A stretch of 64,000 bases of DNA from Escherichia coli (GTDB lineage Bacteria; Pseudomonadota; Gammaproteobacteria; Enterobacterales; Enterobacteriaceae), in the NCBI RefSeq assembly GCF_013315695.1, contig NZ_CP054353.1; one strand, 5' to 3'. A program made the position numbers and the translations under genes. Positions 7,246-7,547 of this stretch are shown here, one piece after another. A model generated the notes under the pieces. The model was not told where the DNA came from. It searched no databases and worked only from the letters and a program-made list of their open reading frames with translations. Within the stretch, counting starts at the first letter, position 1. Each line of letters begins with the position of its first letter.

Positions 7246-7547
7246 TAACACAATCGCTTGCGGACGGGTAAACGTAATGCAGGCTTCCGGGCGCTGTAGA
7301 TCTACTGCGTTTTACCCCACCGCCAGCACACATCGCGCTGGCGGTGAACGACAAAGGAACAAAGACCGCAACACGCTTCCTGTGCCTCAATAAACACCAG
7401 AAATAATGGCTATACTCGTCATACTTCAAGTTGCATGTGCTGCGTCTGCGTTCGCTCACCCCAGTCACTTACTTATGTAAGCTCCTTGGGATTCACTCGC
7501 TTGTCGCCTTCCTGCAACTCGAATTATTTAGAGTATATAAATCGCCG

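Follow-up and report, generated by a model that had tools for sequence, protein, structure and literature searches.

A predicted 3'-terminal mRNA stem-loop in an acquired cassette upstream of gyrA in Escherichia coli

Introduction

A hairpin with a perfect GC-rich stem lies a short distance upstream of gyrA in a 64,000-nucleotide stretch of Escherichia coli DNA (contig NZ_CP054353.1), which is referred to here as the window. The hairpin is found where a small operon has been inserted in front of the gyrase gene, and this leads to the question what such a structure does at this place. An earlier note on this DNA had suggested that it might insulate the supercoiling-sensitive gyrA promoter from read-through out of the inserted operon, or might mark the insertion junction. 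In this study, the folding, origin, conservation and transcriptional surroundings of the hairpin were analysed. A literature search on the inserted cassette found nothing.

Results

Stability and strand preference of the hairpin

The hairpin occupies positions 7318-7346 and is assigned to the minus strand. Its letters, CACCGCCAGC-ACACATCGC-GCTGGCGGTG, form two fully complementary 10-nt arms around a 9-nt spacer, and the perfect 10-bp stem described in the earlier note was confirmed by both the window sequence and an inverted-repeat scan. Folded as RNA, the 29 nt of the hairpin reach -24.0 kcal/mol on the minus strand versus -20.5 kcal/mol on the plus strand, and the surrounding 49 nt reach -26.3 versus -22.2 kcal/mol. 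The z-scores of the fold are approximately -5.5, with none of 200 shuffled sequences being as stable. In minus-strand RNA the stem has 12 pairs and a 5-nt loop, and is extended by two outer G·U pairs (7316-7348). Because flanking A·C mismatches on the plus strand become G·U pairs on the minus strand, the stem has 14 pairs in the sense RNA compared with 10 in the antisense RNA. This predicted asymmetry points to a function, or at least to formation, of the hairpin in the operon transcript.

Perfect 10-bp inverted repeats with loops of 3-12 nt are found at four sites in the window, as against 0.82 expected from dinucleotide shuffles, and when at least eight G+C per arm are demanded there is one, as against 0.07 expected. 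The shuffle expectation is somewhat too low, because the arm consists of an oligomer that is frequent in E. coli: allowing up to one mismatch, GCTGGCGGTG was counted 29 times where 5.6 occurrences are expected. The hairpin thus exceeds chance, though for the stem alone not overwhelmingly. These numbers bear on the explanation that the hairpin is a functionless passenger, a relic that was either carried in or made when the cassette was assembled, and that was retained only owing to the youth and near-clonality of the island. Regardless of composition, chance alone gives about one perfect 10-bp stem in a 64-kb window, and the arm is a common word, as would suit a passenger, but the low expectation for a GC-rich stem, the strand-specific G·U extension and the intergenic position at the end of an operon all speak against it, and we consider this explanation rather unlikely.

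Some further structures were noted in the window. Perfect hairpins at 23247-23272 and 57334-57365 (stems of 10 and 14 bp) have no U-run on either strand, and a hairpin at 30069-30098 is a canonical terminator with TTTT directly after it. A 17-nt inverted repeat, 82% complementary, connects the native gyrA -35 region (7256-7272) to positions 7311-7327, which belong to the inserted DNA and include one arm of the hairpin; it would compete with the hairpin in read-through RNA and is probably of chance origin. The arm GCTGGCGG is one base away from the Chi sequence, GCTGGTGG. Words that are one base off are simply common in the window, and a Chi site was rejected.

Origin of the hairpin with an inserted cassette

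Alignment with K-12 revealed that the hairpin is missing there, with the homology on the gyrA side stopping at 7252. The megablast homology to about 5,280 other complete genomes ends at the same position. In K-12, gyrA and ubiG are divergent neighbours separated by a spacer of 146 bp. Strain WB61 carries the same diverged flanking haplotype as the window and an identical UbiG protein, and the cassette is missing from it. Its empty site (...GGGCGCTGTA|CTGCTATACTGCC...) sets the island at 7299-11061, 3,763 bp including an ERIC repeat, and the hairpin is therefore island DNA and not native gyrA upstream sequence. Between WB61 and K-12, the distance from the ubiG TATACT to the gyrA start differs by a single nucleotide, with values of 106 and 107 nt; since the two spacers are collinear, the empty arrangement is ancestral and the cassette is an insertion. 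Identity to K-12 is 88.6% for ubiG-yfaL (window positions 11127-14016) versus 97.8% for gyrA, which places the island within a haplotype block of strong divergence, beginning a short way upstream of the gyrA -10 element. It is due to this diverged haplotype that the K-12 homology ends 46 bp short of the true indel boundary.

The island has a G+C content of approximately 40%, compared with approximately 52% in its surroundings, and consists in order of a 3' untranslated region (3'UTR) with the hairpin, a dehydratase gene, an MFS transporter gene, a divergent promoter region and a GntR regulator gene. Among 5,426 complete E. coli genomes searched by distant blastn, 141 (about 2.6%), IAI39 included, contain the hairpin segment. 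It is always single-copy and unannotated in its carriers, and each copy for which the surroundings were read has gyrA on one side and ubiG on the other. Species-representative genomes contain no close homologue of the cassette, the best being from Budviciaceae with 77-78% amino acid identity and in other contexts. A closer relative with 87% amino acid identity was found on a Logan contig (L030). An ancestral Enterobacteriaceae segment that was lost from K-12 was rejected, based on the missing close homologue in species representatives and the collinearity of the empty site with K-12. A 444-bp contig labelled Terrisporobacter petrolearius (L024) matches a portion of the island dehydratase gene of E. 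coli with 100% identity and is probably a contamination of that assembly.

The hairpin begins 20 bp inside the left end of the island (boundary 7298/7299), in agreement with its earlier placement at the probable island boundary. The suggestion that it marks the insertion junction did not hold, as the hairpin is set back from the junction by these 20 bp, the other end has no matching structure, repeat or duplication, and there is neither a tRNA nor a mobility gene. The junction itself is clean, without target duplication or terminal repeats, and the island ends share no words of 9 nt or longer, direct or inverted. The genes of the island are those for the dehydratase, the MFS transporter and the GntR regulator only, with no mobility gene, integrase, transposase or recombinase among them, and a tRNA/tmRNA search gave no hit at the hairpin or elsewhere in the island. 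The left junction is straddled at 7292-7309 by a palindrome of 18 bp that has one mismatch and GATC in its centre (CGCTGTAGA|TCTACTGCG; CGCTGTAGATCTACTGCG), with 7 nt of native and 11 nt of island sequence; as a rough estimate, its chance at a given position is about 1e-4.

The near-palindrome across the junction and the short distance to the island end are the observations in favour of an element that acts at the DNA level, be it an insertion or recombination signal, a protein-binding palindrome or a cruciform. The right end, which lacks a counterpart, and the island, which lacks an integrase, a transposase and a tRNA, argue against it, as do the single copy per genome, the missing plasmid copies and the unrelated metagenome matches described below. 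Furthermore, arms of 10 bp around a GC-rich 9-bp spacer are ill suited to cruciform extrusion, and the likely operator of the GntR regulator, ATATCTGATATAT, is unrelated to the hairpin. A DNA-level role is in our judgement very improbable.

Several known classes of element were compared with the hairpin. REP/BIME and ERIC elements resemble it as stable intergenic palindromes in 3'UTRs, and REP elements in this position stabilise the upstream mRNA; these are, however, multi-copy families, whereas the hairpin is single-copy and matches no repeat family. A REP/BIME-type repeat was rejected on finding one match in the window even at three mismatches and one place per genome in 142 genomes. The end of a mobile element (IS200/IS605-like hairpins, MITE inverted repeats or att sites) was rejected since there is no cognate at the other end, no duplication and no recombinase, and a plasmid origin was rejected since PLSDB contains no match. 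A metagenome scan for both arms with any loop of 3-12 nt yielded at least 120 stretches, mostly on GC-rich contigs. Among the matches listed, 119 of 120 show no relationship to the hairpin in loop or flanks, and the remaining match (L148) represents the present E. coli locus. Given the unrelated loops and flanks of the matches listed, the hairpin arms do not represent a conserved element. Rfam covariance models gave no hit overlapping 7318-7346 even at E <=10.

Genes of the island and their decay

The gene preceding the hairpin (7548-8750, minus strand, stop codon at 7548-7550) encodes a protein of 400 amino acids. It had previously been called an enolase gene; the product is an acid-sugar dehydratase of the MR/MLE group, which belongs to the enolase superfamily, and it scores under every NCBIfam equivalog cut-off. 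The position given for the hairpin, between the stop of this gene and the gyrA -10 element (7243-7248), was correct. Upstream of the dehydratase gene on the same strand is the gene for an MFS transporter of the D-galactonate transporter family (8763-10091), which is frameshifted near its N-terminus in this window; an intact allele used for comparison encodes 442 amino acids (L156, 1660-2988). The GntR/FCD-family regulator gene (10328-11026, plus strand) is divergent from the operon and is annotated as frameshifted in two other strains (L002 and L003). The cassette thus seems to be decaying independently in different lineages, and because of this decay in several strains selection on its 3' end may be weak. 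The divergent MFS/GntR promoter region contains two copies of a palindromic motif, TATATCTGATATAT (ATATCTGATATAT), at approximately 10172-10187 and 10250-10265. Judged by sequence, these copies are probably GntR-family operators, and the hairpin was rejected as a further operator because it is unrelated to the repeated palindrome.

The 3'UTR and the question of termination

The hairpin lies in the 3'UTR of the MFS-dehydratase operon, on the sense strand, and the operon is transcribed on the minus strand toward gyrA. In alleles without the ERIC repeat the hairpin starts approximately 77 nt past the dehydratase stop codon and ends 19 nt before the end of the island. In the window, a 127-bp ERIC (IRU) repeat at 7411-7537 is placed between the stop codon and the hairpin. 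It was assigned by the ERIC2 and ERIC1R primer sequences, the former matching exactly and the latter with one mismatch. In Rfam, the repeat gives a weak V_AS5 match under the gathering score, which was the sole notable hit of that search, and every E. coli genome contains several copies of the segment. The repeat is polymorphic among island alleles: it is missing in some (N-01, A35, 2013C-3264 and others), and ECCNB12-2 (L002, 6310-6590) has a long form with two nested inserts. The ERIC-free allele reads GGCCTTAAATCG where the window reads GGC[ERIC]TAAATCG. The hairpin is located 64 bp from the repeat and is separate from it, as some ERIC-free alleles keep the hairpin. An extended palindromy of the last 70 bp or so of the island was rejected; the predicted long-range pairing is wobble pairing between U-rich and purine-rich segments, and a manual comparison found only 7 of 19 flanking positions to be complementary at the DNA level.

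With respect to its stem, the hairpin resembles an intrinsic terminator: 12-14 pairs with -24 to -26 kcal/mol on the minus strand, past the dehydratase stop codon. The earlier note had stated that no U-run follows in either orientation and that the hairpin is not a canonical terminator, and both statements were substantiated. The sequence following the stem is GGGTAAAACG on the minus strand (GGGUAAAACGCAGUA / GGGUAAAACG as tails) and AACGACAAAG on the plus strand. Neither orientation has a U-tract, defined as at least five U in 8 nt beginning 0-2 nt past the stem, and a terminator scan of 6900-7900 returned zero terminator-like sites. Efficient release in E. coli intrinsic termination needs a U-tract, and efficient intrinsic termination is therefore not expected at the hairpin. 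Like intrinsic terminators the hairpin offers a GC-rich stem past the last gene of an operon, but intrinsic terminators have their U-tract after the stem, whereas the nearest U-rich run here is 5' of it.

This U-rich tract (GGUCUUUGUUCCUUUGUCGUU in minus-strand RNA) covers 7347-7367, directly 5' of the hairpin, and is preceded in the transcript by a weak stem-loop at 7377-7402 (UUCUGGUGUUUAUUGAGGCACAGGAA; UUAUUG..CACAGGAGG). The related cassette L030 has a textbook terminator after the same gene, AAAAGCCUC...GGAGGCUUUUCUCAUUUUG, and the tract at 7347-7367 aligns to the U-tail of this terminator. The position and part of the sequence of the weak stem-loop are suggestive of homology to the L030 intrinsic terminator, though not proof of it, and the U-rich tract probably remains from the tail of an upstream terminator that has decayed. 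The island 3'UTR in E. coli thus appears to keep a decayed terminator of the L030 type, UUAUUG..CACAGGAGG followed by the U-rich run, at 7347-7402, which would explain the odd occurrence of a U-rich tract 5' of a strong stem. In L030 (3537-3699), the dehydratase gene and the canonical terminator are followed by a gene starting MTPENSEKR behind a TATACT-like -10 element. This gene may be ubiG, in which case the cassette adjoins ubiG there as well, in the opposite orientation.

The possibility was also considered that the hairpin, perhaps together with the decayed upstream terminator, acts as a leaky terminator or insulator without a U-tract, which pauses or releases enough polymerases to keep island transcription off the supercoiling-sensitive PgyrA 45-100 bp downstream. 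Both the place and the strand of the strong GC stem suit such a role, the operon runs in the same direction as gyrA at only approximately 100 bp upstream of the gyrA start codon, and the weak hairpin with the U-rich tract just 5' could contribute. On the other hand, the tail GGGUAAAACGCAGUA contains no U-tract and the terminator scan was empty, the U-rich run precedes the strong stem instead of following it, and even full termination would leave the positive supercoils ahead of the polymerase. Taken from the sequence features, such an insulator is conceivable but doubtful.

Minus-strand sequence with more C than G begins directly after the hairpin and covers 7206-7317 (78-nt windows, C/G 1.05-1.5). 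These are the sole C>G windows in the 3' region of the operon, and they consist mostly of the native gyrA promoter and leader. The excess is modest, ranking roughly among the top 6-13% on the minus strand, where 36% of all windows have a C/G above 1, and the regular C spacing of a rut site was not found in 7206-7317.

Conservation among island alleles and relatives

Nineteen copies of the hairpin were read, from nine haplotypes of the intergenic region that fall into three size classes (without ERIC, with ERIC and with long ERIC), and in each of them the arms are identical and keep their offset. One of these copies has a 3-nt deletion in the loop that spares the arms, and approximately 9 of 65 neighbouring 3'UTR positions vary among the 19. 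By a rough estimate, zero changes in 20 arm positions would occur by chance in about 5% of cases if the arms varied at the rate of their neighbours, so that the invariance is weak evidence, compatible with constraint. Diversity across the copies is too low for any covariation in the hairpin to be counted.

This low diversity, with at least 96% identity over 158 bp across the 141 island genomes, is what a passenger would also show, and the decay of the island genes points the same way. So does the comparison with the closest relatives, as no homologous hairpin was found in the 3'UTRs of L030, L004 (Limnobaculum) or L005 (Budvicia). In L004 and L005, inverted repeats read by eye from the sequence, putative hairpins, follow right after the dehydratase stop codon. 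Because the related Enterobacterales cassettes each have such a hairpin or putative hairpin after the same gene, this operon would normally possess a structured 3' end. Moreover, a stem of -24 kcal/mol in a 3'UTR impedes exonucleases physically, selected or not, which weakens the case for a structure without effect.

Promoters next to the island

The gyrA coding sequence (4570-7197, minus strand) is downstream of the island operon and co-directional with it. Its predicted core promoter at 7243-7272 consists of TGT-TATAAT, with the -10 element at 7243-7248, and a TTTACC -35-like element at 7267-7272; this assignment is our own reading of the sequence, which would place both elements in native DNA outside the island. 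Both are common to the island haplotype and K-12, with the spacer and discriminator diverged. The minus-strand discriminator reads TATAATCTCCGACC (7229-7252) versus TATAATTTGCGACC in K-12 (L001, 3130-3153), and the -35/-10 spacer is almost wholly different from K-12. This region is reported to carry the relaxation response of PgyrA, with a -10-centred supercoiling sensor (PMC6170449). The operon lies approximately 100 bp upstream of the gyrA start codon and approximately 60 bp upstream of the gyrA transcription start. At the other end, ubiG (11104-11826) follows the GntR regulator gene, with yfaL next to it. The ubiG -10 element TATACT is at 11066-11071; since the right end of the island is 4 bp upstream of it, island DNA supplies the ubiG -35 region in carriers.

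Discussion

The hairpin upstream of gyrA is real and non-random, and is most likely an ordinary operon-end stem-loop in an acquired cassette. As to its function, we give roughly an even chance to the reading, predicted from sequence, that it is the 3'-terminal stem-loop of the MFS-dehydratase mRNA, setting and protecting the 3' end after Rho termination or read-through without releasing the polymerase efficiently.

In E. coli, Rho-dependent transcripts have been described that end just past stable stem-loops without U-rich tails (Dar & Sorek 2018, PMC6061677). Such stem-loops shield the RNA from PNPase and RNase II, and are closely followed by rut sites and a mild excess of C over G (PMC6061677). 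The hairpin combines several features of this class, namely a stable stem-loop that is followed by sequence of reduced U content and is not preceded by an A-tract. The likeness comprises a sense-strand stem-loop and the missing U-rich tail and upstream A-tract, and may extend to the modest excess of C over G just downstream. The class of Dar & Sorek differs in having mapped 3' ends and Rho dependence, whereas the present hairpin is known from sequence alone. It differs further in that the downstream C>G stretch belongs to an essential gene, as its promoter and leader, and is not ordinary spacer, and in that the hairpin is on acquired DNA.

For the 3'-terminal stem-loop, the following course of events would be expected. 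RNA polymerase would not be efficiently released at the hairpin; transcription would either be ended downstream by Rho, acting where C exceeds G across the promoter and leader of gyrA, or would continue into gyrA. The stem-loop would then block the 3'-to-5' exonucleases PNPase and RNase II, and would by this means fix a discrete 3' end and stabilise the operon mRNA. If the gyrA promoter were shielded at all, this would be incidental and probably incomplete.

Supercoiling that is generated locally by transcription of a neighbouring unit is known to affect PgyrA (PMC6170449), and a stop signal at the hairpin would for that reason bring a plausible benefit. A stronger form of the insulator explanation is that the hairpin has been selected to stop or process foreign transcripts, so that induction of the sugar-acid operon feeds neither read-through nor positive supercoils into PgyrA. 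This we regard as improbable; if it were true, the locus would show, as an experiment of nature, how gyrase homeostasis copes with a rewired neighbourhood.

By itself, the hairpin is of little importance, being an ordinary, though unannotated, stem-loop at the end of an operon in a small accessory cassette. More interesting than the hairpin is the context of the locus. The cassette splits the back-to-back promoters of gyrA and ubiG and replaces everything upstream of approximately -62 of PgyrA and of the ubiG -10 element, and the upstream neighbour of gyrA is changed from a divergent to a co-directional unit, which now stands just upstream of a supercoiling-responsive promoter. Because PgyrA senses local supercoiling, island strains such as IAI39, the empty-site strain WB61 and K-12 offer a ready-made comparison for the effects of the neighbourhood on gyrase expression.
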